From positions 1-51,030 of the forward strand of contig CAZEYK010000001.1 in the NCBI GenBank assembly GCA_964516055.1: DNA of 51,030 bases. Direction: 5' to 3'. Below the pieces are notes generated by a model, which had not been told where the DNA came from, searched no databases, and saw nothing but the letters and a program-made list of their open reading frames with translations. Numbering within the stretch: the stretch's first letter is position 1; the number at the start of each line of letters is the position of its first letter. The stretch is from an uncultured Gammaproteobacteria bacterium. GTDB lineage: Bacteria > Patescibacteriota > Patescibacteriia > Magasanikbacterales > UBA922. The translations under genes and the position numbers were made by a program. This document shows, piece by piece, positions 6,026 through 40,135 of the stretch.

Positions 6026-7330
6026 TCACAGTGACCAATACGCCAAGCCAACATCTTCAATGTCCTGCCGATTATACAAATGTTTAATATCTGCCAGCAA
6101 GCAAGAGTGACCATTGGTAAATGCCTGTACTGTATGCGGATCCAACGAAGCAAACTCATCATGCGCCACACCAACAACAAGCAAATCAGCTTTTGGTAAT
6201 GCGTCCTTTTCTGTAAGAGAAAATCCATACTCATGCGCAACTTCAGCAACATCAGCATGAGGATCACACACAAACACCGTCATACCAGCAGCAATAAATG
6301 CGCGATACATATCAACCACTTTTGAATTGCGAATATCCGGAATATTTTCTTTAAACGTTACTCCCAACATCACAACAGTGGCATCTTTTGGATCTTTTCC
6401 TAACTGTCGCAATTGATCCATTAATGTTTCCGCAATAATGGTAGGTATCCTATCATTTATTCCTCTCCCCGCCAAAATAACATCTGGAGAATATCCAAGC
6501 TGTGTTGCCTTATGCGTCAAATAATAAGGGTCCACTCCAATACAATGTCCTCCAACAAGTCCTGGCTTGAACGGTAAAAAATTCCATTTTGTTCCTGCTG
6601 CCGCAAGCACATCATAAACACTAATATTCATGTGCGCAAAAATAAGCGAAAGCTCATTCATAAGCGCAATGTTTAAATCACGCTGCGTATTTTCAATAAC
6701 TTTTGCGGCTTCAGCTACTTTAATAGATGACGCTTCAAATACCGTTGTAACCGTACCATACACGCCAGCAATCACTGCCAAACTTTCTTTATTCATACCA
6801 GAAACAACTTTCACCACCTTATCAATAGTATGTTCTTTATCACCAGGATTCACTCGTTCTGGGGAATACCCAATCAAACAGTGTTCTGGGGCATGCAACG
6901 AAGCGGCTGCTTCAAGAATAGGCAAACATATTTCTTCTGTTGCGCCAGGATACACTGTAGATTCATAAACCACAATGGAACCCTCAACCATATGCTCCCC
7001 TACCATTTGTGAAGCCTTTTTGAGAATAGTTAAATCAGGTTCTTTATCATCGGTAATTGGCGTAGGGACGGCAACAATAATAAATTTTGCATCGGCAATA
7101 GATGCGGGATCATCACTATAAAAAATCGTCGCCTGTTGTAATTCAGCAGAATCAACTTCTTTTGTCACTTCAATCCCCTGTTTCAACTCAGCAATACGCG
7201 TTTTATTTACATCAAATCCAATCACGGAAAAATGTTTCGATAACAACACCGCAAGTGGCAATCCCACATACCCAAGTCCCACCACACAAACCTTTTCTTG
7301 CTTTGATTGTAACTGTTCAAGTGTAACCAT
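6026..7330 (-). CDS. Nucleotide-sugar 6-dehydrogenase, UDP-N-acetylhexosamine type (TviB/WbpO/WecC-like)
   Basis: VCVVGLGYVGLPLAVLL NAD motif. The catalytic-Cys motif GGHCIGVDPYYL is typical of the UDP-GlcNAc/GalNAc/ManNAc dehydrogenase branch, not GGSCxxKD. Confidence 0.8.
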   Translation of the reverse strand: MVTLEQLQSKQEKVCVVGLGYVGLPLAVLLSKHFSVIGFDVNKTRIAELKQGIEVTKEVDSAELQQATIFYSDDPASIADAKFIIVAVPTPITDDKEPDLTILKKASQMVGEHMVEGSIVVYESTVYPGATEEICLPILEAAASLHAPEHCLIGYSPERVNPGDKEHTIDKVVKVVSGMNKESLAVIAGVYGTVTTVFEASSIKVAEAAKVIENTQRDLNIALMNELSLIFAHMNISVYDVLAAAGTKWNFLPFKPGLVGGHCIGVDPYYLTHKATQLGYSPDVILAGRGINDRIPTIIAETLMDQLRQLGKDPKDATVVMLGVTFKENIPDIRNSKVVDMYRAFIAAGMTVFVCDPHADVAEVAHEYGFSLTEKDALPKADLLVVGVAHDEFASLDPHTVQAFTNGHSCLLADIKHLYNRQDIEDVGLAYWSL

Positions 7331-7396
7331 AAATAAAATGTATTTACCGTATTTATCAAAAAATGTAATACTTTTCTAAACAGATATTTGTGCTTT

Positions 7397-7672
7397 GGGG
7401 TATACTACCCCCAGCCAGCTCCATAGTGGCATAGCTCTGTGGATCTAGCTGCAAGAAATGATGCCAAAATAATATGTCATCCTGAGCGTAAGGAGGAGTA
7501 CCACGACGACTGAAGTCGAAGGATCCCGATGCAGAAAGCAAAATTTTCTATCACGAGATCCTTCGACTCCATTCGCTCGTTCCTTGCTCATTACGCTCAG
7601 GATGACATACTTCACAGCCTTGTCGGGCTTGCCTACCAGTAGGCAAAACTATGGAGCGAGAATCGTATCCCC
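7397..7672. repeat. ~276-bp imperfect palindromic (MITE-like or REP-like) element in the intergenic region
   Basis: Perfect 19-bp inverted repeat TATGTCATCCTGAGCGTAA (7473-7491) / TTACGCTCAGGATGACATA (7591-7609). Inner 12-bp pair AGTCGAAGGATC (7514-7525) / GATCCTTCGACT (7557-7568). Outer pair GCTCCATAGT (7418-7427) / ACTATGGAGC (7648-7657). Termini GGGGTATAC (7397-) / CGTATCCCC (-7672). Confidence 0.7.
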
Positions 7673-7695
7673 TTATAATTCGTAAATGAAAATTA

Positions 7696-9087
7696 TTAAT
7701 TATTCGTAATTCCCAAAAACGGAGACCCCACCGCAATAAGCGAAAATCCTGCCTTTTGCAACTCATCATATCGATGCTGCAACATCCTTCGCCCATCCAT
7801 AATAAGTGCATTCTTTTCTGGAAGAGCCAAAAGTACCTCCGCAACCTGTCGAAACTGTGGCCAATCCGTCGCAATAATAACCACATCCGCATGCATCGTA
7901 GCAGAACGAATATCCGCCATGTACACCAGTTGCTCACTCGCCGGAAAATCCATTCCAAACATATCATTTGCCACAGGATCATACAATCGTACTTCCTTTA
8001 CCCGCTTCTCTTGCAAAAATCGCACAATATCAAGACTTGGACTATTGCGTGTATCATTGGTATCTTGCTTAAATGCAAGTCCCAAAAGCGCAACTGTTTT
8101 TCCTTGCCAGTCAAATCCAGCTTCCGTTTCTGGCCGAGACAAAAATAATTCTAGCTGCCGTTTATTAGCAAGATACGTTTCATTCACAAGCGAAGAAACT
8201 TTTCCCGCTGTTTGTAACTGATGAGAAAGCGATCGAGCATCCTTGATCAAACAACTTCCCCCAGCATACAAACTATTATAAAATCCCCAATTACTAATTC
8301 GTTTATCCGCGGTAATAATAGACCGAACGTTTTCAAAGGTCACATCATCAAATGCTTCACACGTTCTCCCAATCACATCAAAACATTGCGCAAGCTTACT
8401 AAACAAATAATAATTTGCGAGAAGTTTTCCTGCCGCGGCTTCCTTTGGACTCACTTCAAGATATCCAACCGTTGATGAAGTATAAAATCGATTATATATA
8501 TTTCGCATAATACCAAAATCTTGTTCAGATTCTGCTCCCACCACTACACGATCTGGACGAATAGATCCTTCAATTGCTTTTCCTTCAACCAAAAATTCTG
8601 GATTAGACACCACCCCAAAGTTTGTAACACCTGCTTTCATTAATAACTCTTTGGTCATATCAATCATATCAATGGGAACCGTACTTTTGTTGACAATAAC
8701 TACATATTTTTGTTGAGCACCACCATTCCGTTTGGCTAGTGCGACTGCCAATTGTTCTGCTGCTGCGGTATAATAGGTAAGATTACTTTCTCCTGTTTCC
8801 CCAATTTCTGGTGTTGGCAGACACATGAACACGGCATCACACGTATCAAGGAATGCAAAAACTTCTTGATAATCACTCGTAAAACGCAAATGGTCTGCAT
8901 GTTGAGCACACATTTCCGCAAGTTCCTTTTCATGCAAGTACGATTCAATACGTGTTTTATCAAGTGAAGCAAAGGCGGCTATTTTTTCTGTATCAATATC
9001 AAAAACAAGCGTGTTGTGCCCACTATCCGCAGACACCGCCGCACTACACGCCCCCACAAATCCGCCTCCAATATATAAGATATTCAT
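7696..9087 (-). CDS. ugd: UDP-glucose 6-dehydrogenase family protein
   Basis: MNILYIGGGFVGACSAAV NAD motif and catalytic motif GGSCLIKDARSL. Length is 463 aa with an ATG start. Confidence 0.8.
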   Translation of the reverse strand: MNILYIGGGFVGACSAAVSADSGHNTLVFDIDTEKIAAFASLDKTRIESYLHEKELAEMCAQHADHLRFTSDYQEVFAFLDTCDAVFMCLPTPEIGETGESNLTYYTAAAEQLAVALAKRNGGAQQKYVVIVNKSTVPIDMIDMTKELLMKAGVTNFGVVSNPEFLVEGKAIEGSIRPDRVVVGAESEQDFGIMRNIYNRFYTSSTVGYLEVSPKEAAAGKLLANYYLFSKLAQCFDVIGRTCEAFDDVTFENVRSIITADKRISNWGFYNSLYAGGSCLIKDARSLSHQLQTAGKVSSLVNETYLANKRQLELFLSRPETEAGFDWQGKTVALLGLAFKQDTNDTRNSPSLDIVRFLQEKRVKEVRLYDPVANDMFGMDFPASEQLVYMADIRSATMHADVVIIATDWPQFRQVAEVLLALPEKNALIMDGRRMLQHRYDELQKAGFSLIAVGSPFLGITNN

Positions 9088-9115
9088 ACTATCAAATAAT
9101 TACCTAGACAACACG

Positions 9116-9161
9116 GTCATCTCGAGTAACCTCGGCAACAGCCGGGGCATCGAGAGATCTC
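9116..9161. repeat. Degenerate half-copy related to the left arm of the 7397-7672 palindromic element
   Basis: GTCATCTCGAGTAACCTCGGCAACAGCCGGGGCATCGAGAGATCTC resembles GTCATCCTGAGCGTAAGG...GTCGAAGGATC at 7476-7525 in its start, end and length. Confidence 0.4.
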
Positions 9162-9373
9162 AATGTATTTATTAGTTATATTACTGAAATGAAATATACC
9201 CAAAAATTTCATGACTACCTAGCTCCAAAAGTGTACAGGAATCCTCTTTTTTTTTCAATAAAAACGAAAAACATAAAAAAAGGGGGCTTGGGGGCGGCGT
9301 CATGAAAAAATCACAAATATTCAATATTATGATAAAACCACACAAAACAATCGTCCGCCCCCAAAACTTTTTG

Positions 9374-9397
9374 TTCCTTTTTGGTTACAAAAAGGAA
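9374..9397. other. Perfect 10-bp stem-loop in a long non-coding region
   Basis: TTCCTTTTTG (9374-9383), loop GTTA, CAAAAAGGAA (9388-9397). Its role (terminator remnant or leader structure) is unknown. Confidence 0.5.
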
Positions 9398-9502
9398 ATA
9401 TACTCAATTTCCTAGCTAATCCCATAGTAGCGTAGAACTGTAGAATCACATTGTCACCTATAGCCTATCCTATCTAAATATTACCTATACCCACAAAACA
9501 AC

Positions 9503-9531
9503 TTGACAAGAACACAAAAAAAGACTATATT
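9503..9531 (+). promoter_or_regulatory. sigma70-like promoter facing the GC-rich island
   Basis: TTGACA (9503-9508), a 17-nt spacer, then TATATT (9526-9531). It lies in AT-rich DNA about 195 nt upstream of the kinase ATG. Confidence 0.55.
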
Positions 9532-9589
9532 GCCCTGTTATCTAAGATGCCTATTTTGTAGTTAACACAGCTAAAAAATATACACCTGG

Positions 9590-9626
9590 ATAGCAAAAAC
9601 CACTCAAAGAGTGGACATTTTGCTAT
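9590..9626. other. Nested 15-bp hairpin at the AT/GC transition (5' leader of the island operon)
   Basis: Outer stem ATAGCAAAA (9590-9598) / TTTTGCTAT (9618-9626). Inner stem CCACTC (9600-9605) / GAGTGG (9609-9614). Confidence 0.5.
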
Positions 9627-9726
9627 TCAACAGTCCTTTACAATTCAACACTACGAAAAAAAACACAGATCCATCGGCGTCAGCCAATGCGATCTATACC
9701 CGCCGCAATGCGGCAGGAGTGACACC

Positions 9727-11409
9727 ATGGCTGACAATACCAACAAGAACTATCGCTACATCGACAACGACCAGTTCGGAGGAAAGGTGCTCGAGCCTGG
9801 ATCCAAGATCCAGAACACGGACATCACCGTCCTCGACATCCTTGGCGCCGGCTCATTCGGCGTCGCCTACCTCTGCCAGAACAACGGGCAGGGACAGGTC
9901 GTCGTCAAGATGCTTCGGCAGAAGTTTCGTGGGGATTCTACCCATGTGAAACTGCTGATGCACGAGTGTGACATCGGCATCGGTTTAAAGAGCATCTCCC
10001 AGGTCGCCGGAGCATTTCAGTTCGGCGATCACGACGGCATGCGCTACATCGTGCTGCCGTACATCAAAGGTGAGACGCTCGAAAAGAAACTCCGGAATAA
10101 AAAAATGACGGAAACGGAGGATGTTGTGAGGTTCTTCTTGAGCTTCCTCGACGCAGTGCATCTCATGCACAGCGCCGAGTGCATCCACCGCGACCTGAAA
10201 CCGGAGAACATCATCGTCCGCGAGGAAGATGGTGCCGCGTGCATCATCGACCTCGGCACAGCAACCCATGTCGGGGAGAAAGAAGGTGACAACGTCTATA
10301 AGACCCAAGACGGGCAGGGCGGTGTACGCGGAACCCCCGTGTACATGTCTCAACTCCAATTCTCTCACAAGGCGGCATCCCCCAAAATGGACCTCTTCGC
10401 AATCAGCGTCATGCTGTTCGAGGCCATCACGGGAAAGATGCCCATCGAAGTACAAGAGGGAGATGCCTACACGGACGTCTACCGCAAGTACTTCCAACAA
10501 AAGCACTATGAGAGCCTGGATCAGCTCGTCAAGAATGACGCAAAGCTCTCCATGTTCTTCCAAGTGCTGAAAATGGGTTTCAAAAGCGGCGAGCTCGGCC
10601 CCGAAGAAGGGTCCTACTTCGCCAGCGCGGAGGAATTCCTCGACGCGCTGAAGAACATCTGCGAAGTCAACTTCCCCACCCTCTGGGCGGAGATCAGCCG
10701 CCAGGAGGCGAAGGAAAAAACAGGCATGATGAACATCGGCGACATCATCACCCAGATCGACGACAACAAAAGGACCAATCGTCCCAAGGTCGTCGACACG
10801 GCAGACACCATGCCACCCGCCGAGGTTCACCTTGCCGCGACGGCTGAGGCGATCGAAATCACCCTCCCCCCGGGTAAGGCTGGTTCTTTCGCCAAAATCA
10901 CCGTAGCGGTGGTAGGAGCACTCATGCTCCTCGCCGCCATCGCCCTTGGAGCCATCTGGCTCCTGAGCAACGACGAGGTCACCACCAACCCCAAAACAAT
11001 AAACACCGTGCAGCAAGAGGACAGCAGGGATGTCAACGAATATCCCGCTGAACTCGAACAGCCATCCTCTCCCGACGCAGAGTCCTCAGACGCGAGCACG
11101 CTCGCGGACAAGGCTCCGCAACAGGAGAAAGACATCGGTGTCAAAGATACAGGGGGGGAAGCAAAAGTCGAAGAAGACGCGTCCAAACAGGACGTCGTCG
11201 TCAAGACTGACACCTCGCCAAAGAAGCCACCAAAAGTCGTACCTCGTCGCCGTCGCACTCGCCCCCCAAAGGTCGAGGACAACAGCAACAACGGTGCAAA
11301 AACAGATACGCCACCCACCGAGAAAAAGAAGCCAAAAAGCTTCCTCACCAAACCGCCCAGCGGTACGGAGAAGAAGCCAAAAAGCTTTCTCAACGGAGGT
11401 GGCAAATGA
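9727..11409 (+). CDS. Hanks-type Ser/Thr protein kinase with one TM helix and a Lys/Pro-rich low-complexity tail
   Basis: AGGAG lies 7 nt upstream of the ATG. Kinase motifs: G-loop LGAGSFGVAY, VVKML lysine, catalytic loop HRDLKPENIIV, IIDLGTA (DFG-like), GTPVYMS. TM helix FAKITVAVVGALMLLAAIALGAIWLL. The tail carries a duplicated EKK(K)PKSFL. Third codon positions are strongly G/C. Confidence 0.9.
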   Translation: MADNTNKNYRYIDNDQFGGKVLEPGSKIQNTDITVLDILGAGSFGVAYLCQNNGQGQVVVKMLRQKFRGDSTHVKLLMHECDIGIGLKSISQVAGAFQFGDHDGMRYIVLPYIKGETLEKKLRNKKMTETEDVVRFFLSFLDAVHLMHSAECIHRDLKPENIIVREEDGAACIIDLGTATHVGEKEGDNVYKTQDGQGGVRGTPVYMSQLQFSHKAASPKMDLFAISVMLFEAITGKMPIEVQEGDAYTDVYRKYFQQKHYESLDQLVKNDAKLSMFFQVLKMGFKSGELGPEEGSYFASAEEFLDALKNICEVNFPTLWAEISRQEAKEKTGMMNIGDIITQIDDNKRTNRPKVVDTADTMPPAEVHLAATAEAIEITLPPGKAGSFAKITVAVVGALMLLAAIALGAIWLLSNDEVTTNPKTINTVQQEDSRDVNEYPAELEQPSSPDAESSDASTLADKAPQQEKDIGVKDTGGEAKVEEDASKQDVVVKTDTSPKKPPKVVPRRRRTRPPKVEDNSNNGAKTDTPPTEKKKPKSFLTKPPSGTEKKPKSFLNGGGK

Positions 11410-12422
11410 AGCAGGAGAACAAGAACATCATGAACAGAACCATGTCGTTCCTCGCTGCCACGCTCGTGGTGGTGGGGATGCTCCTGGGTTGGGGAAACCT
11501 GGCCCAGGCGCAGTCGGACGAAGTCCTCATCACCAAGGCCGAGCAGGCCATGGTAAAGAAGGACTACGTCCAAGCCATCGAGCTGTACACCCAGCTCTCC
11601 AACCGCAACAAGGACATGTCGGTGTACAAAGTCAACCTCGCGTTGGCCTACATGTCCATGAACGACGTCTGCTCGGGCCTCAAGTGGTTCGAGCAGGCGT
11701 CAAAAAACGAAGATCTGCCGCAAAGCGACGCGGCTGTCATCCAGACTGAATATCTGGAAGGATCATACGCCTGCCAAACCCTCACCGTGACCATCATCCC
11801 CCCTAAAAAGGGTGTGAAGCTCACGGTCGAAGGCAAGCTCGTCGCCACGACGGACAAAAACGGCAAAGCGACCATCGCCAAGCCGTTCACGTCCGTCGGT
11901 CAGATCACCCTTGTCGCCACCACCGACAACCGCACGGCGTCCACCACCGTGGACATCCCGTACGGTATCGGGGAAAAGTCCGTCACCATCACCCTGCCCA
12001 AGCCTACCAAAGGCAACGGCATCGTGTGGACCGACGACAAGAAGACTGATGAGGATGAGTTCGAAGTTGGCACCAAGCATCTCACCGTCATCGGCGTCGG
12101 GACCCTGTCCCTCGCGCTGGTGACAGGCGGCGTGTTCGCCAACATTTCGGCCGCGGGAAAATACGGAGAACTCGAGACCCTCGCGGGCAAACAAGCCCGT
12201 GGAGAGCTCAGGTCTCCCGCCGAAGCCGCGAAGCTTCAAGGGGAGCTCGACGACATGAACCAGTTGATGACAGCAATGTACATCAGCGGCGGCCTCCTGG
12301 CTGCCGCCGACGTCGCGCTGTTCTTCTACTGGGAAGCCGAGGAAACCAACAACAACACCCCCACCGTCACCATCACCCCCATGCGGGATGGTGGCACCGC
12401 GGTGTTCACCCTCCCCTTCTGA
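11406..12422 (+). CDS. Exported TPR-like / beta-sandwich (PEGA-like) protein with two C-terminal TM segments
   Basis: ATGA overlap with the kinase stop. Signal-like FLAATLVVVGMLLGWGNLAQA. TPR-like helix pair KAEQAMVKKDYVQAIELYTQL. Beta-rich segment TVTIIPPKKGVKLTVEGKLVATTDKNGKATI. TM segments LTVIGVGTLSLALVTGGVFANI and MYISGGLLAAADVALFFYW. Confidence 0.7.
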   Translation: MKQENKNIMNRTMSFLAATLVVVGMLLGWGNLAQAQSDEVLITKAEQAMVKKDYVQAIELYTQLSNRNKDMSVYKVNLALAYMSMNDVCSGLKWFEQASKNEDLPQSDAAVIQTEYLEGSYACQTLTVTIIPPKKGVKLTVEGKLVATTDKNGKATIAKPFTSVGQITLVATTDNRTASTTVDIPYGIGEKSVTITLPKPTKGNGIVWTDDKKTDEDEFEVGTKHLTVIGVGTLSLALVTGGVFANISAAGKYGELETLAGKQARGELRSPAEAAKLQGELDDMNQLMTAMYISGGLLAAADVALFFYWEAEETNNNTPTVTITPMRDGGTAVFTLPF

Positions 12423-12429
12423 AACAACA

Positions 12430-12448
12430 GGGGAGGCAACGCCTCCCC
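12430..12448 (+). other. GC-rich intercistronic hairpin
   Basis: GGGGAGGC (12430-12437), loop AAC, GCCTCCCC (12441-12448), with no following T-run. It lies between island genes 2 and 3. Confidence 0.45.
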
Positions 12449-12466
12449 CCAACAAGGAACACAATC

Positions 12467-14515
12467 ATGAAACAGTTCATCCATTTCCTGATGGGGATGG
12501 GGATGGCGATGCTATTCGTCGTCTCCGGCGGCTGTGAGAGCAGCCTCATCACCTGCGAAAAGAGCGCAGACTGCCCCGCGCACGCTTCGACGTGCTCCGA
12601 GGGCATCTGCATCACGCAGATCTCCATCGACAACGACACCGACGGCAACAACGACGGCAACAACGACAGCGATGTCGTCAACCCCGACGTCCCCGATACG
12701 GACAACGACACCTCCGACGCCGACGTCCCCCTGGACAACGGCTGCGGCGGTTCGGTGGAATTCCCAGAGGGTCAACGCCCAGGCGACCCCTGCGGCGAAA
12801 ACGACGAAGGGATGTGGGAGTGCGCCGGACAAAACGCCGTTCAGTGCAACGCCCCCAACCGCAACGCGTGTGGTGGCGAACAAGAGCTCAACGACGTACC
12901 CGGCACGATGTGCGGCGACGTGTGTCGCGATGGTTCACTCCGCTGCGACGAGGATGGTGAAAACCTCTTCTGCGCTGGCGAAAACGAGCCGTCAAATTGG
13001 TACCTCGACCTCGACGAAGACGAATACGGCGCGGGCGACCCCGCCGAGTTCTGTCCGAGTCAAGAAAGAGGTGCCTACACCGCCACTGTTGGCGGTGACT
13101 GCAACGACACGGACCCCGACGTCCACCCCGACGCCACCGAGATCTGCGACGGAATGGACAACAACTGCAACGGCGACTCTGACGAGCCGCTGAACGCCTG
13201 CGGGAGTTGTCAGGTCCTCCGCGGAGAGCCCGGCACCACTTGTGGTGAAGGACTCGATTGCGGATCAGGGACCTGGGAGTGCATGGGCGGCAACGTCCAG
13301 TGCACCCCCGGCGAGAACTCAGATCTCAACGCCTGCGGCGGATGCAGCACCCTCAGCCATGAGCCTGAAGAGGCTTGTGGTCAGTGCGGTGCCTACGCCT
13401 GCGACGGCGAAAACGCCACAATGTGCGTTGGCGCCGAGCCCAACAACGTTTGCGGCGGGTGCAACGCCCTGTCAAGCGACGTTGGCGCGCCCTGTGGCGC
13501 CTGCGGCGAGTATATCTGCAACGGTCGGGACGCTGTGCAATGCAGCGACCCCGGCCGCAATGCCTGTAATGGGTGTGGTGTTCTGGCTCATCAGCCCGCC
13601 ACGTCCTGTGACGAATGTGGGACCTACACCTGCAACGGCCCCAACACCGTCACCTGCAGCAACGACGTAGGCTTCAACGCCTGCGGCGTCTGCGACCGCA
13701 ACGGTGGTGTCTGCTGCGGCACAACCCTGTGCCCGCAGTCACCGCAAGGCTGGCCTGCGACCTGCAACGAAAAAGATCACTGCGAGTATGCTCCAGCCGA
13801 CGAGCTGGAGTTCTACAAAACGGTGATCTACGTTCCCCCCGGGAGCTTCCTCATGGGGGGACCCGAAGGAATTGAGAATGAAAAACCCGTACACGAGGTA
13901 ACATTCGTGCAAGGGTACTTCATTGCAAAGTTCGAGACCACCAGCGAGTGGTACGAACAATGCCCTCCATGCTTGGAGCAGCAGCGATCAATTGCCAACG
14001 GCAACGTTGGCAACTGGGGGCTCAACACCTCCAGCAACGGTCGCTCGCTCCACCCCGTCAACGGCGTCAACAAAAATGACGCCACCACCTTCTGTCTCTG
14101 GGCAGAAGGTCGACTCCCCACAGAAGCCGAATGGGAATTCGCCGCCACAGGAGAAAATCACAGGATCTACCCCTGGGGGGATGTTAATGGAACCTGCAAC
14201 CAGGCAATACTAACAATCTGTGGTTCCTTGGGGACCACAGAAGTGGGAACAGCAGCTGGGGGCGTCACCCCCAAAGGATGTCTCGACATGATCGGCAACG
14301 TAGCCGAACATGTAAGCGACGCCTACCACCCAACATATGAGGGTGCCCCAAATGACGGCACATCATGGGATGAGGGTGGAGAACCTGGAACCATAGTCAT
14401 CCGCGGCGGGGGGTATCACCAGGATACCCCCCGCATATCACACAGAGTAAGCTCGTTTAGTGACGAGCGAAACGCAATGACAGGATTCAGGTGTGTCTTC
14501 TTTGGCCTCCCCTAG
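12467..14515 (+). CDS. Lipoprotein with Asp/Asn-rich linker, ~6-7 Cys-rich repeats, a MopE-like metal-binding motif and a C-terminal FGE-sulfatase (SUMF1/PvdO/GldK-type) domain
   Basis: Lipobox-like MLFVVSGGC. Repeats of the form NACGGCxxLxxxPGxxCGxCGxYxCxGxxxVxC. MopE-like motif DCNDTDPDVHPDATEICDGMDNNCNGDSDE. C-terminal domain: YVPPGSFLMGG..EKPVHEVTF..LPTEAEWEFAA..IRGGGY..GFRCV (about 13820-14506). Confidence 0.85.
   Translation: MKQFIHFLMGMGMAMLFVVSGGCESSLITCEKSADCPAHASTCSEGICITQISIDNDTDGNNDGNNDSDVVNPDVPDTDNDTSDADVPLDNGCGGSVEFPEGQRPGDPCGENDEGMWECAGQNAVQCNAPNRNACGGEQELNDVPGTMCGDVCRDGSLRCDEDGENLFCAGENEPSNWYLDLDEDEYGAGDPAEFCPSQERGAYTATVGGDCNDTDPDVHPDATEICDGMDNNCNGDSDEPLNACGSCQVLRGEPGTTCGEGLDCGSGTWECMGGNVQCTPGENSDLNACGGCSTLSHEPEEACGQCGAYACDGENATMCVGAEPNNVCGGCNALSSDVGAPCGACGEYICNGRDAVQCSDPGRNACNGCGVLAHQPATSCDECGTYTCNGPNTVTCSNDVGFNACGVCDRNGGVCCGTTLCPQSPQGWPATCNEKDHCEYAPADELEFYKTVIYVPPGSFLMGGPEGIENEKPVHEVTFVQGYFIAKFETTSEWYEQCPPCLEQQRSIANGNVGNWGLNTSSNGRSLHPVNGVNKNDATTFCLWAEGRLPTEAEWEFAATGENHRIYPWGDVNGTCNQAILTICGSLGTTEVGTAAGGVTPKGCLDMIGNVAEHVSDAYHPTYEGAPNDGTSWDEGGEPGTIVIRGGGYHQDTPRISHRVSSFSDERNAMTGFRCVFFGLP
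12734..13726 (+). repeat. Coding tandem array of ~38-40-aa cysteine-rich repeats (Myxococcus-type disulfide repeat-like)
   Basis: Seven units, the last partial, each begin with N[AGV]C: NGCGGSVEF.., NACGGEQEL.., NACGSCQVL.., NACGGCSTL.., NVCGGCNAL.., NACNGCGVL.., NACGVCDRN... Confidence 0.75.
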
Positions 14516-14540
14516 AGCCTAGGGTTGAGGTCTTCCCCAT

Positions 14541-14565
14541 ACCCGACTGTATTCTGCAGTCGGGT
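14541..14565 (+). other. GC-rich 9-bp hairpin just after the island stop codon (possible donor-type terminator without U-tract)
   Basis: ACCCGACTG (14541-14549), 7-nt loop, CAGTCGGGT (14557-14565). Confidence 0.45.
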
Positions 14566-14569
14566 CATC

Positions 14570-14602
14570 AAAAAAGCATTGAATAATATTCAATGCTTTT
14601 TT
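14570..14602. terminator. AT-rich bidirectional intrinsic terminator between convergent units
   Basis: A6 (14570-14575), palindrome GCATTGAATA-A-TATTCAATGC (14576-14596), T6 (14597-14602). It lies between the island stop (14515) and the minus-strand stop (14638). Confidence 0.75.
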
Positions 14603-14637
14603 GTTTATTACTAAATTGTAAAATACAAAAAAATAAT

Positions 14638-15348
14638 TTACTGTTCCAATAGATGTTTCATTCGTGCTTCAGCCACAATCCAATCATCCTTACTATCAAT
14701 ATCTTGCGAATACACCGTATCCATTTCATATCCATACCGTCTTTTCCCCCACAAAGAACCTTCCAATAAATTATTAACCCGAAACGCATAAATGGCAGAA
14801 TTCACATAATATGTTATTGGTAAATCCTGATTTCTCTTAAAATTGGTGCATTCTGATTTTACAACAGGCATAACAATTTCATCACCAATGTTTTCTAATT
14901 GTTTCAAATAACTCATCCTACCAGGAACTCGAGAAATACCAACCAAAGAATCAATATCATCCCGTTCCTCAATAATTTGTTTTACCTCTTGAATATGAAA
15001 AGATTGTCTGCCTGGACAAGAAGGCTCTAATAAAATAATCCAATCAGCATAATACTTTCTATTTTCCCTCATCCAATTAACAGCATGAATGACGACATCT
15101 AGTGACGTCGCCATATCAGTAGCCAACTCTGCTGGTCTAATAAAAGGAACATCCACACCATGAGCTTTACCAATACTTGCAATTTCTTCATCATCAGTAG
15201 ACAAAATAAAATGATCGAAAACATTACTTTGTTTTCCAACATCAATACTCCAAACAAGCAATGGCTTACCCAAAAATTCTTTAATATTCTTCCTAGGTAA
15301 ACGCTTTGATCCACCACGGGCAGTAATAAGGCCTAATATTTTTTTCAT
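14638..15348 (-). CDS. CMP-nonulosonic acid synthetase (acylneuraminate cytidylyltransferase family), copy 1
   Basis: MKKILGLITARGGSKRLPRKNIK..GKPLL.WSI motif. It is clearly paralogous to 39404-40135, sharing FDHFILSTDD, VPFxRPAELATD and YYxNSAIYAFRV. The track ORF's 34-aa N-terminal extension overlaps the upstream gene, so ATG 15348 is preferred. Confidence 0.8.
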   Translation of the reverse strand: MKKILGLITARGGSKRLPRKNIKEFLGKPLLVWSIDVGKQSNVFDHFILSTDDEEIASIGKAHGVDVPFIRPAELATDMATSLDVVIHAVNWMRENRKYYADWIILLEPSCPGRQSFHIQEVKQIIEERDDIDSLVGISRVPGRMSYLKQLENIGDEIVMPVVKSECTNFKRNQDLPITYYVNSAIYAFRVNNLLEGSLWGKRRYGYEMDTVYSQDIDSKDDWIVAEARMKHLLEQ

Positions 15349-15355
15349 AAATAAA

Positions 15356-17323
15356 CTATATATGCAAACCACACTCATTATTACCCGTATCATGAAATCG
15401 TCCCTTTCTTTCTTCGTTAGCAACATCACTTTTTTTTGTACAAGGTTCACAACCTAAAGAAGTATATCCTTCATTATATAATGGATGATATGATAACTTA
15501 TACGTTCGTAAATATTCCCATACATCATCTTTTGTCCAAAATGCAATTGGATTATACTTTACAATATTTTCTGATTTTTCAATAATAGGAGTATATTGTC
15601 GTTGAACACTTTCATCACGACGTAATCCGGTAATCCATGCATCATACTTATCTAAAATGGGAACAATGGCAGGTTTTTTCATGGCACAACACATATACTG
15701 TCCTTCATGAATAAACGAATTTGCAAACGTACTTTTTATTTCAGAAATATCATCTTCAGTAGGACGAACCCACAAAAGATTCATATGAATTTCTTGCTCT
15801 AATTCTTTTGCAAAACGAAGTGTCTCTGGAAATTCATATCCAGTATCAATACTAACAAACAAAGCATCAGACTTAATTTGCATAACTAAATCAGCAATAA
15901 CTCGAGAATCCTTACCAAATGAACAAGCAACAAACAAATTTGGATGAACCAAAAATGCATGTTCAATAATTATTTTTGAAAGTTCTACCTTTTCTTCAAG
16001 AGTTATGTTTTTTTTAGGAACATCCAATAAAAGAGGTTCTTCTTGAATGTCAGGCAACATTTTTTTCTCTGATGGAGTAATAACCCCAGCAGCAACAGTA
16101 TCTCCTGTAACTTCATCAATTAATATAAAACTTCCCAATTTTTTATTCTTCTTGTATGAATCAAAAACAAATGGTTCATGAGTAGTAAAACGCACCTTAC
16201 CTATCTGATTAAGTTCCACTTGAGAGGCTTCTTGATATTCCCCATTCAAAACATCAATAACAGAAAAAACAGTATTAATAAAACAAAAAGTCTCCTTTGT
16301 CGTTTGTTTGATAATATATCTATTTTTCTTTACCGCAGGTTGTTTATTAAACCAAAACACCACAGCATCAATATTGTTAGAAACAATAGGTTCATTACCA
16401 ACACGCACCACAATATCCCCTCGACTGACATCAATTTGGTCAACAAAACTCATAACAGCAGCCTGTCCATTAAACGCATAACTCACATCTTCTTCTGCTA
16501 CAGAAATATGTTCAATAAAAGATTCAACACCTGATGGTAAAACTTTTATATTATCTCCAACAAGAAATACTCCTCCAGCGACAGTCCCTGCATACCCTCG
16601 AAAATCTTGATCAGGACGAACAACATATTGCACAGGAAAACGAGCATCCACCATATTACGGGAAGAGATAACAGGAACATCATGAATATATTCAAGTACT
16701 GTCTGACCAAAATACCATAACAAATTATTGCCACGAGTAGCAACCATATCACCTTTTAAAGCAGAAACCGGAATAAACTGAATATTTTTTATACCAATAT
16801 TTCTCGTAAACAATTGAACATCATCCCTTATGTTTTCAAAAACACCTTGATCATATGACACCATATCCATTTTATTCACAACAACTGCGACATGGGGAAT
16901 ATTCAATAAAGAAAGGACAAAAAAATGACGTCTTGTTTGCACAGTCATTCCTTTTCTTGCGTCAATCACAATCAATGCAACTTGAGAATGAGAAGCACCT
17001 GTAACCATATTTCTTGTATATTCTTCATGACCAGGAACATCGGCAATAATAAACGTTCTTTGATTAGAAGAAAAATATCTATATGCTACATCAATAGTAA
17101 TTTTTTGTTCTCGCTCAGCTTCAAGACCATCTGTAAAAAGTGAATAATCAAGTTCATCCTCAATGTGTTCAGTATTTTCAACAGCTTGTATTTGATCTTC
17201 ATACACATTACCCGTATCATAAAGAAGCCTTCCTATTAAAGTTGATTTTCCATCATCTACACTTCCAGCAATAACAAGAGTAAGTAATTCCATGTTTCGA
17301 TTGTATTTACGTTTATTCTCCAT
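15356..17323 (-). CDS. cysN: Fusion: sulfate adenylyltransferase subunit 1 (CysN GTPase) + Fe-S type APS/PAPS reductase (CysH family)
   Basis: CysN part (aa 1-417): GSVDDGKSTLIGRLL, DVPGHEEY, NKMD. CysH part (aa ~441-655, nt 16003-15359): PP-loop-like ACSFGKDS, the Cys pair QYMCCAMKKP, GCEPCT, and the C-terminal ECGLH motif. Confidence 0.85.
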   Translation of the reverse strand: MENKRKYNRNMELLTLVIAGSVDDGKSTLIGRLLYDTGNVYEDQIQAVENTEHIEDELDYSLFTDGLEAEREQKITIDVAYRYFSSNQRTFIIADVPGHEEYTRNMVTGASHSQVALIVIDARKGMTVQTRRHFFVLSLLNIPHVAVVVNKMDMVSYDQGVFENIRDDVQLFTRNIGIKNIQFIPVSALKGDMVATRGNNLLWYFGQTVLEYIHDVPVISSRNMVDARFPVQYVVRPDQDFRGYAGTVAGGVFLVGDNIKVLPSGVESFIEHISVAEEDVSYAFNGQAAVMSFVDQIDVSRGDIVVRVGNEPIVSNNIDAVVFWFNKQPAVKKNRYIIKQTTKETFCFINTVFSVIDVLNGEYQEASQVELNQIGKVRFTTHEPFVFDSYKKNKKLGSFILIDEVTGDTVAAGVITPSEKKMLPDIQEEPLLLDVPKKNITLEEKVELSKIIIEHAFLVHPNLFVACSFGKDSRVIADLVMQIKSDALFVSIDTGYEFPETLRFAKELEQEIHMNLLWVRPTEDDISEIKSTFANSFIHEGQYMCCAMKKPAIVPILDKYDAWITGLRRDESVQRQYTPIIEKSENIVKYNPIAFWTKDDVWEYLRTYKLSYHPLYNEGYTSLGCEPCTKKSDVANEERKGRFHDTGNNECGLHI

Positions 17324-17326
17324 ACA

Positions 17327-18235
17327 CTAAAAATAGCCTTGTTTTTTTTTATGTTCCATTGAAGTGTCAGATGTTTTATCAATTGCCCTATTACTTCTTT
17401 CGGACTGTTTTGCTTCCAAAACTTCACAAAGGATTTCCTCAACTGTTTTTGCACATGACAATACGGCACCAGTAGAAGGTGAACACCCTAAAGTTCGATA
17501 ACGAGCTTCTGCTTCTATAACTTCTTCCCCTTCTCGAGCAATCACATAATTGTCCAACGCATAAAAACTATTATTGCGCTTCACCAATTTTCTTTTCTCG
17601 GCAAAATAGAGTGAGACAACTTCAATCTTTTCTTGAAGAATATACGCCCAGATATCGGCTTCAGTCCAATTAGACAATGGAAAAACGCGCATACTCTGTC
17701 CATTCTGTAATTGAGTATTGTATAAATTCCATAACTCAGGTCTTTGTAATTTTGGATTCCAACCACTGTGTTCATTACGAACAGAAAAAATACGTTCTTT
17801 TGCACGAGATTTTTCTTCTTCACGTCTAGCGCCACCAATTGCGGCATCAAAACGATACCTTTCAAGAGCGTCAAGTAAAGGCTTCGTTTTTTTATGATAA
17901 ATATAATTATCAGTATGTGCATCATTCGGACCAAAAGACAAAGCCTCCAAAGAATCATTTTTTTCAACAATCAGTTGCACACCAATTTTATCTATATAAT
18001 AATCACGAAATTCAATCATCTCTCTAAATTTAAACCCTGTGTCAACGTGCAAAAGAGGAAAAGGAATCTTTCCTGGGAAAAAAGCCTTTTGTGCTAAACG
18101 TAACAAAACTGAAGAATCCTTACCAATAGAATAAAGAAGGACAGGACGACGAAATGTCGCAGCGACCTCACGAAAAATATAAATACTTTCTGCTTCAAGC
18201 TGCTTAAGCGATGATAATTGATATTTTTCCCCCAT
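17327..18235 (-). CDS. cysD: Sulfate adenylyltransferase subunit 2
   Basis: LKQLEAESIYIFREVAA..PVLLYSIGKDSSVLLRLA PP-loop. Length is 302 aa. It ends 3 nt before the cysN fusion start. Confidence 0.85.
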   Translation of the reverse strand: MGEKYQLSSLKQLEAESIYIFREVAATFRRPVLLYSIGKDSSVLLRLAQKAFFPGKIPFPLLHVDTGFKFREMIEFRDYYIDKIGVQLIVEKNDSLEALSFGPNDAHTDNYIYHKKTKPLLDALERYRFDAAIGGARREEEKSRAKERIFSVRNEHSGWNPKLQRPELWNLYNTQLQNGQSMRVFPLSNWTEADIWAYILQEKIEVVSLYFAEKRKLVKRNNSFYALDNYVIAREGEEVIEAEARYRTLGCSPSTGAVLSCAKTVEEILCEVLEAKQSERSNRAIDKTSDTSMEHKKKQGYF

Positions 18236-27426: not shown

Positions 27427-27439
27427 ACAACAATAAATA

Positions 27440-39403: not shown

Positions 39404-40135
39404 TTATGTTAAAAGTTTTTTCATTTTTATAGTGGCAACATCCCAATCATCTGGAGTATCAATATCAAAAGCATATTTTTCATCCATCAAATATCCCTTC
39501 GTTAAATCACCCCATAACGAAGGATCCTCTGTATAAAAATTGGCAACACGAAATGCATAAATAGCCGAATTAATATAATAAGTAGGTGATATATTTTGAT
39601 TTCGATGAATAAAATTTTTTACCTTTGTTCCATCAATAGAAGCAACTAAATCATCTTCCGTAAAAACAAGTGATTTATATGGACTAAAATGAGCAGGGAT
39701 TTTCGATATACCCACAATTGAATCAATATGATTTCCATATTCCTTAATTAATTGAACAACATCTATAACATGCGATGCTTGTCTTCCTGGAGCAGTTGGT
39801 TCAAACAAAACTACCCAATCAGCATTATATTGTTTATTATCACGCATCCACTCAACAGCATGTTTCACAACTTCAAATGATCCAGCAGTATCGGTAGCCA
39901 ACTCAGCGGGTCTCATAAATGGCACATCAATACAATATTCCTTTCCCACAGCAGCAATATCATCGTCATCTGTACTCAAAATAAAGTGATCAAAACAATT
40001 TGCATTTTTACCAACCTCAATACTCCACGCTAACAATGGTTTCCCATGAAATGGTTTAATATTCTTTCCTGGCAATCTTTTTGAATCACCACGCGCAGTA
40101 ATTATTCCTAAAATATTAGGATTTAATTTTTTCAT
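39404..40135 (-). CDS. neuA: CMP-nonulosonic acid synthetase, copy 2
   Basis: ILGIITARGDSKRLPGKNIKPFHGKPLLAWSI. Close paralog of 14638-15348. Confidence 0.8.
   Translation of the reverse strand: MKKLNPNILGIITARGDSKRLPGKNIKPFHGKPLLAWSIEVGKNANCFDHFILSTDDDDIAAVGKEYCIDVPFMRPAELATDTAGSFEVVKHAVEWMRDNKQYNADWVVLFEPTAPGRQASHVIDVVQLIKEYGNHIDSIVGISKIPAHFSPYKSLVFTEDDLVASIDGTKVKNFIHRNQNISPTYYINSAIYAFRVANFYTEDPSLWGDLTKGYLMDEKYAFDIDTPDDWDVATIKMKKLLT

Follow-up and report, generated by a model that had tools for sequence, protein, structure and literature searches.

A GC-rich three-gene island in a Candidatus Magasanikbacteria surface-glycan locus and its possible role as a split receptor-type Ser/Thr kinase system

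The island and its operon signals

The DNA analysed here (the window) is a 51,030-nt stretch from Candidatus Magasanikbacteria, a CPR lineage from groundwater with a tiny, low-GC genome. Three tightly packed plus-strand genes (9727-11409, 11406-12422 and 12467-14515) form a 4.9-kb block, bounded by sharp GC steps at ~9650-9700 and ~14520-14570. The features of the locus are as follows.

9503..9531, +, promoter-like TTGACA-17-TATATT (11/12 consensus matches; a consensus match only)
9660..14565, +, GC-rich island (GC 0.51-0.66 vs 0.31-0.43 in the flanks), containing the three genes only
9727..11409, +, gene 1, bitopic Hanks-type Ser/Thr kinase, 560 aa (Pfam Pkinase, 5e-33)
9829..10533, +, kinase catalytic domain (aa 35-269), predicted cytoplasmic (PF00069, 115 bits; alignment to StkP and PknB)
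10909..10965, +, kinase TM helix (aa 395-413), the one strong TM segment (Kyte-Doolittle 2.6)
10966..11406, +, extracytoplasmic low-complexity tail of the kinase, 148 aa, K/P/T/S/D/E-rich
11406..12422, +, gene 2, 338-aa membrane protein, its ATG overlapping the kinase stop codon
11442..11513, +, signal-peptide-like segment of gene 2, ending in conserved WGN.AQAQ
11523..11756, +, TPR-like helical domain of gene 2 (aa 40-117; AF2 pLDDT ~87-94)
11769..11993, +, beta-sandwich of gene 2 (aa 122-196), PEGA-like by homology (AF2 pLDDT 76-89)
12081..12332, +, helical hairpin of gene 2: TM1, ~40-aa helical loop, weaker TM2 (low AF2 confidence)
12430..12448, +, intercistronic stem-loop GGGGAGGC-AAC-GCCUCCCC, no U-tract
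12467..14515, +, gene 3, 682-aa lipoprotein with 56 Cys
12467..12535, +, signal peptide and lipobox of gene 3, VSGG/C23
12743..13786, +, Cys-rich repeat region of gene 3 (aa 93-440), with units such as NACGGC..L...PG..CG.CG...C
13097-13186, +, one MopE motif in gene 3 (aa 211-240; Pfam)
13820..14497, +, FGE-sulfatase-fold domain of gene 3 (aa 452-677; PF03781, 3e-39, 135.6 bits vs a 23.3 cutoff)
14541..14603, no strand assigned, two hairpins 3' of gene 3 (14541-14565 and 14569-14603); z -7.2

GC3 is persistently high in genes 1, 2 and 3 (0.72, 0.82 and 0.71) as compared to the flanking genes (0.18-0.31), indicating that synonymous positions carry the compositional signal. These values confirm the foreign composition proposed in a preliminary description of this DNA, which had also rightly described the genome as streamlined and low in GC and the setting as a surface-glycan locus. 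The surrounding surface-glycan locus exceeds 45 kb and encodes three NeuB paralogs, cytidylyltransferases, glycerophosphotransferases, an ABC exporter and CysDN; two UDP-glucose/GDP-mannose dehydrogenase-family genes adjoin the island. The island has no integrase, no tRNA and no convincing flanking repeats.

The promoter-like site lies ~195 nt upstream of the kinase start, within AT-rich host-like DNA. An ATGA overlap joins genes 1 and 2 (GGAGGTGGCAAATGAAG), and each gene has a Shine-Dalgarno sequence: AGGAG for gene 1, GGAGGTG for gene 2 and, after the stem-loop, AAGGA for gene 3. The 44-nt spacer between genes 2 and 3 contains the 8-bp GC stem-loop, which has a folding energy of -15.9 kcal/mol (z -3.4) and is equalled by at most 1 of 200 shuffles. 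Stem-loops with different stem sequences occupy the same position in two other lineages, giving three in all (12 bp in L007, 9 bp in L008). The hairpin at 14569-14603 is a perfect 16-17-bp, A/T-flanked bidirectional terminator, common to the convergent host gene. The overlap, the three Shine-Dalgarno sequences, the single promoter-like site, the terminator and the stem-loop kept in three lineages support the earlier view of one operon, and the predicted topologies agree with three exported or membrane-bound products. The exported or membrane nature of the products stands, but the accompanying term 'periplasmic' is doubtful for a CPR cell, which to our knowledge has no outer membrane.

Properties of the three products

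The catalytic motifs of the kinase are complete: the G-loop GAGSFG (aa 40), K61, E80, HRDLKPEN (aa 154) and DLG (aa 175). Alignment to StkP and PknB thus predicts a catalytically competent enzyme, as had been supposed. The protein is only 26-35% identical to any database match. Charges on either side of the TM helix point to an N-in/C-out orientation. The outer tail is disordered, with a tandem KKPKSFL motif at its end (DNA repeats 11326-11347 and 11371-11392). This motif is kept in L007 (KKPKSFL x2) and L008 (GPKIFLPG x2); the remainder of the tail is not conserved.

The TPR-like domain of gene 2 matches Pfam below threshold only (TPR_Slam, 23.8 bits vs a 35.2 cutoff). Foldseek places it among peptide-binding TPRs, although these matches are generic (E 6e-3 to 3e-2). 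Gene 2 itself has no match to Pfam PEGA; PF08308 is matched by P0295 and P0320, homologs aligned to its beta-sandwich. In Foldseek, the sandwich matches 9k1u_D, a chain of the RtkS-PpkA crystal complex, with a TMt of 0.69. TM1 is strong (aa 226-244), and the second hydrophobic helix (about aa 289-309) is weaker and contains an Asp. The short tail after the hairpin ends in an invariant Phe. Of the signal peptide and two TM segments previously assigned to gene 2, the signal-like segment and TM1 hold, whereas TM2 is weak and modelled with low confidence. Profile searches proposed earlier likewise gave a divided result, with Pkinase (5e-33) and FGE-sulfatase (3e-39) recovered and the TPR and PEGA assignments of gene 2 not supported by Pfam matches of its own above threshold.

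The lipobox of gene 3 agrees with the PROSITE lipobox rule, and its Cys is kept in both orthologs (IFGC, MTGC), in keeping with the lipoprotein assignment made at the outset. A conserved motif, SSLITCE..CPAHA..C..GICIT, follows. The structure prediction for gene 3 has a pLDDT of 38. In alignment with the S. coelicolor FGE (2q17), the Cys-x4-Cys loop is deleted or replaced: the catalytic-Cys region reads RGGGY--HQ---DTPRISHR in gene 3 and RGGSYLCHDSYCNRYR in FGE. Because both catalytic cysteines are absent, the domain cannot make formylglycine and is probably a binding module rather than an enzyme, consistent with the non-catalytic role suggested before. The 55 extracytoplasmic Cys raise the question of how gene 3 folds in a presumed anaerobe.

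Recurrence, origin and interpretation of the module

The preliminary description had made co-occurrence of the three genes in other genomes a test of its proposal, and the triad is indeed found in two other diverged metagenomic lineages, L007 and L008. L007 shares the left junction of the island and its left neighbour (UDPG-DH). The kinase gene and gene 2 are tightly linked in all three lineages, with the ATGA overlap in the window. The island proteins are 31-59% identical among lineages, as compared to 66-76% for the flanks. Every catalytic motif is kept in the two kinase orthologs despite an identity of only 31%. With dN/dS of 0.25-0.34, at dS at or near saturation, the island genes are under purifying selection.

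The extreme compositional contrast could suggest an assembly or binning artefact, or decaying DNA without function. In an older NCBI MAG (COU30 locus tags), a 5.5-kb contig ends within the UDPG-DH upstream of the island (PIR77584.1, partial), and the island proteins have no recorded COU30 accession. However, identical junctions occur on six separately assembled contigs of one population, from six samples, with at most 1 SNP in 21 kb. Because the left junction also recurs in diverged L007, the island is not an assembly chimera. A 112-kb NCBI contig carries the kinase and gene 3, the ORFs are intact with dN/dS below 0.35, and motifs and intercistronic structure are conserved. The artefact or junk reading is essentially refuted.

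A donor carrying the same triad was not found among 5.8 billion proteins, 1.84 billion representatives, GTDB genomes and JGI metagenomes, so the suggestion that the triad was transplanted intact is not borne out; Myxococcales share only its skeleton. Over its full length, gene 2 is homologous to a family with a Myxococcales member (hhalign 99.7%, E 3.7e-26, 318 columns), and no curated family was found for either. Among seven distant gene-2 relatives, a kinase gene is nearby in three (L009, L019, L010) and a lipoprotein gene lies directly downstream in four (L009, L019, L017, L018). An adjacent kinase is missing from the P0290 contig and from the upstream side of L017 and L018, so that the true core may be gene 2 plus the lipoprotein, and the kinase an optional addition.

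These data lead us to propose, with a probability of roughly 0.55, that the three-gene operon of the island was acquired horizontally and has been maintained since, and that its products form a split Ser/Thr kinase system of the receptor type at the cell surface. The FGE-fold, C-type-lectin-like head of gene 3 would be the ligand-binding sensor, its ligand most plausibly a glycan or cell-surface molecule of the cell itself or of a host cell, and the TPR/PEGA protein would be the membrane adaptor. Speculatively, the kinase outer tail might dock on the TPR domain through its tandem KKPKSFL motif; retention of the tail motif in three lineages and the peptide-binding TPR matches are consistent with this idea. 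Ligand-dependent clustering would then activate the cytoplasmic kinase domain, which could phosphorylate proteins in the cytoplasm. The two UDP-sugar dehydrogenases next to the island, like other enzymes of the glycan locus, are no more than candidate substrates; the 51-kb window, the island included, encodes neither an FHA-domain substrate nor a PP2C phosphatase. The closest Cys-rich+FGE relatives lie in Memo/radical-SAM/AMMECR1 operons without a kinase, which counts against the receptor-kinase reading.

The same proteins could instead serve adhesion or host attachment by an episymbiotic CPR cell. In that case gene 3 would encode an adhesin of the stalked, lectin-like type, built from a lipid anchor, an acidic linker, a Cys-rich stalk and a C-type-lectin-like FGE-fold head. 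Gene 2 would supply its membrane platform for binding a host surface, and the role of the kinase would be limited to reporting or tuning attachment. The architecture of gene 3 fits this reading, as do the genomes in which the gene-2 and lipoprotein pair occurs without a kinase and the faster divergence of the island proteins, as expected of surface-interaction proteins. According to a survey of DGR targets, membrane-anchored proteins of CPR and other bacteria also commonly use the FGE/CLec fold as a head that binds carbohydrates or ligands. However, the kinase keeps all catalytic motifs in both lineages in which its domain is available, and its close linkage to gene 2 holds in each of the three; no adhesin family is matched, and the window gives no evidence of host association. 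We regard attachment as possible but unlikely. The island's position raises another option, control of the glycan locus itself, in which the kinase would phosphorylate neighbouring sugar-nucleotide enzymes (e.g., the two dehydrogenases) while its exported partners would track the condition of the polymer on the cell's own surface. In E. coli and B. subtilis, (tyrosine) kinases control UDP-glucose dehydrogenases by phosphorylation, and wall fragments are sensed by PASTA kinases. The UDPG-DH neighbour recurs in L007. Yet adjacency may merely reflect the insertion tolerance of glycan loci, the Myxococcales relatives lie outside such loci, and this kinase is Hanks-type rather than a BY-kinase, making local glycan control improbable.

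Matches of the kinase to the PADLOC PD-T4-6 and mad6 models (1e-39 to 1e-35) and to NCBIfam MAD6 (4e-25), together with foreign composition and fast evolution, could mean that the cell gained a defence island with an anti-phage kinase system of the PD-T4-6/Stk2-like or MADS-like kind. These matches cover the kinase domain or, for two PD-T4-6 models, the whole length, though not above generic kinase scores, and 88 bits falls far short of the curated cutoff of 460. Genes 2 and 3 match no defence family, the extracytoplasmic architecture of the three proteins is unlike that of cytosolic phage sensors, and neither relatives in viral contigs nor DNA similarity in plasmids were found, so a defence role is very unlikely. 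Pfam often labels the CLec fold of DGR targets as FGE-sulfatase, and gene 3 ends in such a domain with hairpins after it. Gene 3 might thus be a hypervariable C-type-lectin-fold receptor diversified by a retroelement, the kinase then serving in trans as its output domain. Such retroelements are abundant in CPR bacteria, and their cellular targets are typically membrane-anchored with a C-terminal CLec fold (DGR-target survey). However, the 51-kb window holds neither a template repeat matching the gene 3 3' end nor a reverse transcriptase, and gene 3 is identical on all six separately assembled contigs, with no sign of hypervariation. We give this reading hardly any credence.

Comparison with known systems

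Gene 3 shows a clear fold-level sequence match to the FGE (SUMF1/FGE) family. Its top PDB matches are ToxD (7spq, 3e-14), CalU17, FGE (2q17), PvdO and OvsA; ToxD, PvdO and the EgtB C-domain are fold relatives of FGE. No sulfatase gene lies near gene 3. PorK/GldK, to which gene 3 had been likened, are also lipoproteins with a non-catalytic FGE-sulfatase-fold domain, but membership fails: TIGR03525 scores 44.8 bits against a cutoff of 350, with the match restricted to the C-terminal third. T9SS genes are not present alongside the island, and a CPR host is not expected to carry a T9SS or an outer membrane.

The Myxococcales operon (L009, from the MAG Myxococcales bacterium, and L019) shares with the window the skeleton and gene order, with a membrane-anchored kinase upstream and a lipoprotein gene directly downstream. 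It runs kinase, Pro-rich bitopic protein, gene-2-like protein and Gly-rich lipoprotein, and thus has an extra Pro-rich membrane protein. Its lipoprotein head is a Gly-rich 500-aa protein rather than Cys-rich+FGE, and its kinases are HCD (non-RD) and tail-anchored, whereas the window kinase is HRD.

The recurrence of kinase-FGE pairing asserted in the preliminary description is supported by fused Pkinase-TM-FGE-sulfatase proteins among the database matches (P0126, P0201, P0223, P0236) and by the bSTK atlas, which lists an FGE-sulfatase architecture in its 'Proteo1' family. The fusions have the same two domains and the same inferred topology, kinase inside and FGE fold outside, and their FGE domains also depart from the catalytic Cys pair (e.g., P0126, RGGSWAESLGARSS). 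The window splits in two genes, with the adaptor gene between, what the fusions carry in one protein.

The function of such pairings had been called undefined, a statement that overlooks a studied precedent. In the H1-T6SS threonine-phosphorylation pathway of P. aeruginosa, the exported FGE-sulfatase-domain protein TagR and the lipoprotein TagQ activate the bitopic Hanks kinase PpkA. RtkS-PpkA of Serratia is analogous, and TagR, TagQ and RtkS act on PpkA from outside the cytoplasm. The two systems differ in several respects. In the window, a single protein with a long Cys-rich stalk carries both lipid anchor and FGE fold, whereas TagQ and TagR are separate; the part of the kinase outside the membrane is, unlike that of PpkA, a disordered tail in which a short motif is repeated; and the adaptor is a TPR/PEGA two-helix membrane protein in place of the ABC-like pair TagS/TagT. 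No T6SS, Fha or PppA genes occur near the island in the 51-kb window, and the CPR host, unlike PpkA hosts, is believed to lack an outer membrane. Even so, PpkA with TagR and TagQ appears to be the closest likeness and gives the best reading of the split receptor-kinase module: both systems would combine a bitopic Hanks kinase with separately encoded exported partners, an FGE-sulfatase-fold domain and a lipoprotein anchor. By this analogy, sensor domains that are elsewhere fused to the kinase would here work in trans, in the manner of TagR and TagQ with PpkA.

Gene organization and foreign composition of the island

The preliminary description, made from the sequence alone, placed three genes in the window, the first two overlapping by ATGA and the third following a 44-nt spacer with a hairpin. 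All of these features are in the sequence.

Genes and promoter-like element of the island
9727-11409, plus strand: gene 1, kinase, 560 aa (ORF call)
11406-12422, plus strand: gene 2, TPR/PEGA-like membrane protein, 338 aa (ORF call)
12467-14515, plus strand: gene 3, Cys-rich FGE-fold lipoprotein, 682 aa (ORF call)
9503-9531: promoter-like TTGACA-17-TATATT in AT-rich DNA

These are the sole long plus-strand genes of the region, almost all others lying on the minus strand. Each is preceded by a Shine-Dalgarno sequence, and two hairpins lie 3′ of gene 3, one of which is a perfect bidirectional terminator. Together with the ATGA coupling and the topology predictions, these signals uphold the earlier proposal of a single operon whose products are located in the envelope. 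Folding of the 44 nt that separate genes 2 and 3 gives a GC stem-loop of 8 bp (z -3.4). A stem-loop occupies the same place in the window and in L007 and L008, two diverged metagenomic contigs that carry the triad, with stems of 8, 12, and 9 bp, respectively, and differing sequences. Because its position is kept in three lineages with different stems, the stem-loop supports co-transcription of the island genes; it also suggests a role in mRNA stability or relative gene expression. A search of the 640-nt leader upstream of the kinase for known RNAs or riboswitches gave Rfam matches at chance level only. This spacer is AT-rich except at 9280-9366, where a GC-rich stem pairs GGGGGCGGCG with CGTCCGCCCCC around a loop of ~50 nt (z -3.5); this stem likewise has no Rfam match above chance.

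The GC content rises from ~0.33-0.43 in the flanks to 0.51-0.66 in the island, with steps at ~9650-9700 and ~14520-14570. The contrast is located at synonymous sites: GC3 is 0.72, 0.82, and 0.71 in genes 1, 2, and 3, as compared to 0.18-0.31 in the flanks. C-ending codons account for 69-89% of Y-ending pairs in the island versus 9% in the host, and the enrichment at island third positions is in C rather than in G+C (C makes up ~50% of fourfold sites). This deviation in composition and codon usage from the host supports a horizontal acquisition of the island, as the preliminary description had suggested. No tRNA gene was found as an island target, and searches of the flanks for direct repeats that could serve as attachment sites gave weak low-complexity matches, none convincing. 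No identifiable donor and no sign of mobility, be it an integrase, a tRNA target, or flanking direct repeats, was found for the island.

An artefact ranks last among the rival explanations of this compositional island. It is present on six contigs assembled separately from different samples, with identical junctions and at most one SNP in 21 kb, representing one population and many assemblies; the kinase and gene 3 are also on a 112-kb NCBI contig. The source samples are of groundwater (ERZ27293358 / SRR6050905 series). L007 keeps the order of the window (two UDPG-DH genes followed by the kinase and gene 2, with gene 3 represented by its start); the short contig L008 covers gene 2 together with the tail of the kinase and the beginning of gene 3. 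The identical junctions in six assemblies, the same order in L007, and the triad in L008 exclude an assembly chimera. They also bear out the expectation that the three genes would be found together elsewhere. Across all collections searched, carriers of the triad are the window population, L007, and L008 only. GTDB species genomes searched with a gene 2 alignment contained no triad or donor, searches of JGI metagenome contigs with gene 2 and the gene 3 N-terminus yielded nothing, no island relatives occur in viral contigs, and plasmids show no DNA similarity to the island. The earlier wording that the triad was transplanted intact is thus unproven, since no collection searched holds a donor triad. 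NCBI assigns proteins identical to those of the flanking genes to Candidatus Magasanikbacteria, a CPR/Patescibacteria lineage, under COU30 locus tags. In this older public MAG, one contig in the region of window ~6026-15356 breaks off within the UDPG-DH gene that precedes the island; PIR77584.1 is this partial UDPG-DH, at the edge of a contig of 5.5 kb. The island proteins have no COU30 accession on record. It appears that binned CPR genomes lose compositionally deviant regions of this kind.

Predicted properties of the three proteins

Gene 1 matches Pkinase (PF00069) at 5e-33, with 115 bits against a cutoff of 31.7. The kinase assignment of the preliminary description withstands alignment, in which all catalytic residues are present: GAGSFG (aa 40), K61 in VVVKML, E80, HRDLKPEN (aa 154-161), and DLG (aa 175). 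The L007 ortholog has the same catalytic motifs. The salt bridge between the APE Glu and the subdomain XI Arg, structural rather than catalytic, is lost in the window kinase (GTPVYMSQLQ, Glu to Leu; EEGSYFAS, Arg to Ser); the L007 kinase has SPRQ and retains the Arg. This loss is unusual, and it is no argument against kinase activity. Gene 1 is predicted to encode an active, membrane-spanning Hanks-type Ser/Thr kinase. Its single transmembrane helix (aa 395-413) is followed by a low-complexity tail of 148 aa, and the charge distribution suggests that this tail faces outward. At its C-terminal end are two tandem copies of a motif, KKPKSFL in the window and L007 and GPKIFLPG in L008; the remainder is unalignable among lineages. 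Outside its own lineage, the kinase has relatives no closer than 26-35% identity, in the catalytic domain only. Some of these matches are fused Pkinase-TM-FGE-sulfatase proteins, an architecture that a bacterial STK atlas also lists.

Gene 2 begins with a signal-like N-terminus ending WGN.AQAQ. For the TPR and PEGA domains proposed for it, all Pfam and NCBIfam TPR matches fall under the cutoff, and PEGA (PF08308) does not match gene 2 itself. Its homologs P0295 (1.9e-9) and P0320 (2.9e-4) match PEGA in the aligned columns. In the AF2 model, aa 40-117 form five TPR-like helices (pLDDT ~87-94), for which Foldseek returns peptide-binding TPRs (E 6e-3 to 3e-2, TMt up to 0.8). Residues 122-196 form a β-sandwich (pLDDT 76-89), for which Foldseek returns, among others, chain 9k1u_D of the RtkS-PpkA complex (TMt 0.69). 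A long helical hairpin, modeled with low confidence, contains one strongly and one weakly hydrophobic segment, and the short tail ends in an invariant Phe. Only two close relatives, P0002 (from L007) and P0279 (from L008), were found among 5.8 billion clustered proteins and 1.84 billion representatives. An exhaustive profile search recovered further gene-2-like proteins of 325-370 aa with the same end-to-end architecture, and profile-profile comparison of gene 2 with these distant relatives gives 99.7% probability (E 3.7e-26) over 318 columns. No curated full-length family exists for gene 2 or its distant relatives; this type of protein constitutes an undescribed family of putative adaptors.

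Gene 3 encodes, in order, a lipobox, an acidic linker, Cys-rich repeats over ~350 aa (one MopE motif among them), and a C-terminal FGE-fold domain (aa 452-677; FGE-sulfatase PF03781, 3e-39, 135.6 bits against a cutoff of 23.3). The protein contains 56 Cys in total. The lipobox reads MLFVVSGG followed by C23, with Ser rather than Leu at position -3, and the Cys is invariant in the three lineages; we take it to fit a PROSITE PS51257-type rule. From the signal peptide and lipobox, gene 3 is predicted to encode a lipoprotein. The hallmark of a catalytic FGE is a copper-binding Cys pair (C-x4-C) near the C-terminus. On alignment with solved FGEs (2q17 and 6muj), the corresponding loop of gene 3 is shortened and has Cys at neither position. 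With the pair absent, the domain cannot be a formylglycine-generating enzyme; a catalytic FGE was rejected on this basis, in agreement with the noncatalytic role that the preliminary description had implied. The best PDB sequence match is ToxD (7spq, 3e-14), and the AF2 model of gene 3 has a mean pLDDT of 37.9. The analogy drawn earlier with the T9SS ring lipoprotein PorK/GldK fails as family membership: TIGR03525 scores 44.8 bits against a cutoff of 350, and the window contains no gld or por genes. The closest full-length relatives, P0061 and P0015 (29-30% identity), are encoded in Memo/radical-SAM/FGE/AMMECR1 operons without a kinase. On contigs of 67% GC, L012 (2859-4742) and L014 (8001-10316), Cys-rich FGE-fold relatives lie in conserved operons of the order Memo, radical SAM, FGE, a 177-aa protein, and AMMECR1. 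We know of no description of an AmmeMemoRadiSam system associated with an FGE-fold protein.

Conservation, selection, and persistent GC-rich codons

The contigs that encode distant relatives of gene 2 differ in what lies beside it.

Gene neighborhoods of distant gene 2 relatives
L009 (MAG Myxococcales bacterium): tail-anchored kinase, Pro-rich bitopic protein, gene-2-like protein, lipoprotein of 503-533 aa
L019 (71% GC): arrangement as in L009
L010: gene-2-like protein, then a TPR-kinase
L017 and L018: gene-2-like protein, then directly a lipobox gene; without a kinase upstream
L011: upstream, the Gly-rich C-terminus of a protein that by eye is similar to the L009/L019 lipoprotein, with no BLAST hit
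Contig of the homolog P0290: no recognizable kinase or lipoprotein

These contexts establish a recurrent skeleton of kinase, gene-2-type protein, and lipoprotein in which the head of the lipoprotein is variable. In L009 (666-5418) and the metagenomic contig L019 (3667-8643), the four genes make up an uncharacterized operon; the kinase is tail-anchored and of the HCD (non-RD) type, the bitopic protein is Pro-rich, the TPR/PEGA protein has two membrane helices, and the lipoprotein is Gly-rich, with 41% identity between the L009 and L019 copies.

The kinases of the window and L007 share 31% protein identity, the gene 2 products 59%, and the N-terminal parts of gene 3 49%, as compared to 66-76% for the flanking host genes. 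The dN/dS ratios for this pair are 0.25-0.34 in the island genes and 0.09-0.22 in the flanks; the absolute values are rough because synonymous change reaches or approaches saturation throughout (pS 0.58-0.74). The island is constrained and functional, and it evolves faster than the housekeeping glycan genes. Although synonymous sites are saturated or nearly so, its GC3 is far above that of the host in two lineages (window 9660-14565; L007 6699-10563). We estimate that simple amelioration would bring fourfold-site GC to ~0.4-0.55, even from a start of 100% GC. The actual values are 0.58-0.85 in the window island and 0.55-0.68 in L007, and L008 shows a GC3 gradient from 0.31 in the kinase tail through 0.52 in gene 2 to 0.73 in gene 3. 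Possible causes of the persistent GC3 are later or repeated replacement from unsampled GC-rich donors, selection for C-ending codons, and recombination in the flanks. The island offers a small, well-defined case of why foreign genes sometimes fail to drift to host composition.

A receptor-kinase reading and its nearest studied system

The whole window is a surface-glycan locus that encodes three NeuB paralogs, three cytidylyltransferases, epimerases, aminotransferases, two glycerophosphotransferases, and an ABC exporter, along with CysD and a CysN-like fusion protein. It contains no phosphatase or FHA gene in its 51 kb. The genes for the NeuB (nonulosonic-acid synthase) paralogs, at 18276-19301, 26368-27468, and 38341-39399, are each accompanied by a separate epimerase and cytidylyltransferase; two of the cytidylyltransferase genes, at 14965-15264 and 39740-40039, share 71% identity across 300 nt. 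The gene at 15356-17323 encodes a 655-aa fusion of a CysN-like GTPase with a PAPS-reductase-like domain and adjoins CysD (17327-18235), which suggests sulfate activation for a sulfated surface polymer. A 929-aa fusion of a nucleotidyltransferase, a 3-dehydroquinate-synthase-like domain, and an APH-type kinase (42460-45249) is an unusual sugar/cyclitol activation enzyme. Between the two UDPG-DH genes, at 7473-7609, a 137-nt imperfect palindrome forms one long hairpin (-72 kcal/mol, z -10.9). Its arms, GTCATCCTGAGCGTAAGGAG, are found nowhere else in the window, and the palindrome possibly represents a regulatory structure or a MITE-like element.

The kinase is conserved together with two extracytoplasmic partners, and we read the island as a split receptor-kinase module. 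The FGE-fold head of gene 3 would bind a signal, probably a glycan or surface molecule, and the TPR/PEGA protein would bridge the lipoprotein and the kinase, possibly via the C-terminal tandem motif of the latter. Clustering would then activate the kinase, for which the neighboring UDP-sugar dehydrogenases (6026-7330 and 7696-9087) are candidate cytoplasmic targets. The foremost rival is that the triad is an adhesion module, and a regulator of the surrounding glycan locus ranks next. An anti-phage kinase, ranked third, draws its support from generic kinase-domain matches only, and a defense system was dropped on that account. Ranked below it is the possibility that gene 3 is the variable protein of a DGR, which was also dropped: the window contains no repeat of the gene 3 3′ end, no template repeat or template/variable repeat pair, and no reverse transcriptase, and gene 3 does not vary among assemblies.

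The split receptor-kinase reading can be extended into a bolder account, which is unlikely to hold in full. The island would represent an undescribed trans-envelope system, composed of a membrane Hanks kinase, a TPR/PEGA two-helix protein, and a lipoprotein with an exchangeable head, with Myxococcota-like bacteria as its native hosts. The version captured by a CPR lineage would have a lectin-like head of FGE fold and would serve to sense a host cell or the cell's own surface glycan, and the KKPKSFL repeats would dock the TPR adaptor. The persistent C-ending codons would be due to selection or to re-import, more than once, from an unsampled pool of GC-rich donors, rather than to a single recent transfer.

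CPR bacteria have genomes of ~1 Mb and a presumed lifestyle of attachment to other cells. To our knowledge, almost nothing has been established about the means by which they perceive partners or their own envelope. The proposed receptor-kinase module, imported, conserved, and located in a surface-glycan locus, is a concrete candidate for this role, and it provides a docking hypothesis in which the kinase tail motif binds the TPR domain.

The preliminary description considered the function of such pairings undefined, missing a precedent in which TagR and TagQ act on PpkA. In the PpkA pathway of the P. aeruginosa H1-T6SS, exported TagR, anchored through the lipoprotein TagQ, switches on PpkA, a bitopic Hanks kinase (PMC10482370). 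TagR is annotated as an FGE-sulfatase-domain protein in a gene table (PMC7253367), and in Serratia periplasmic RtkS does the job of TagR on PpkA. Like this pathway, the island has a bitopic Hanks kinase, a separate exported FGE-sulfatase-domain protein, and a lipoprotein anchor. Unlike it, the island uses another adaptor, combines anchor and sensor in one protein, and is without T6SS core, Fha, PppA, and TagS/T genes in the 51-kb window. The comparison ties the unexplained kinase-FGE-sulfatase proteins and the uncurated TPR/PEGA family to the sole studied precedent. Noteworthy are the skeleton common to Myxococcales, the tail motif, and the persistent GC-rich codons. The kind of system is known, and what is new is the undescribed adaptor family and the unusual host. 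The PpkA pathway is the nearest studied system, one that the island probably works like without being a member of it.
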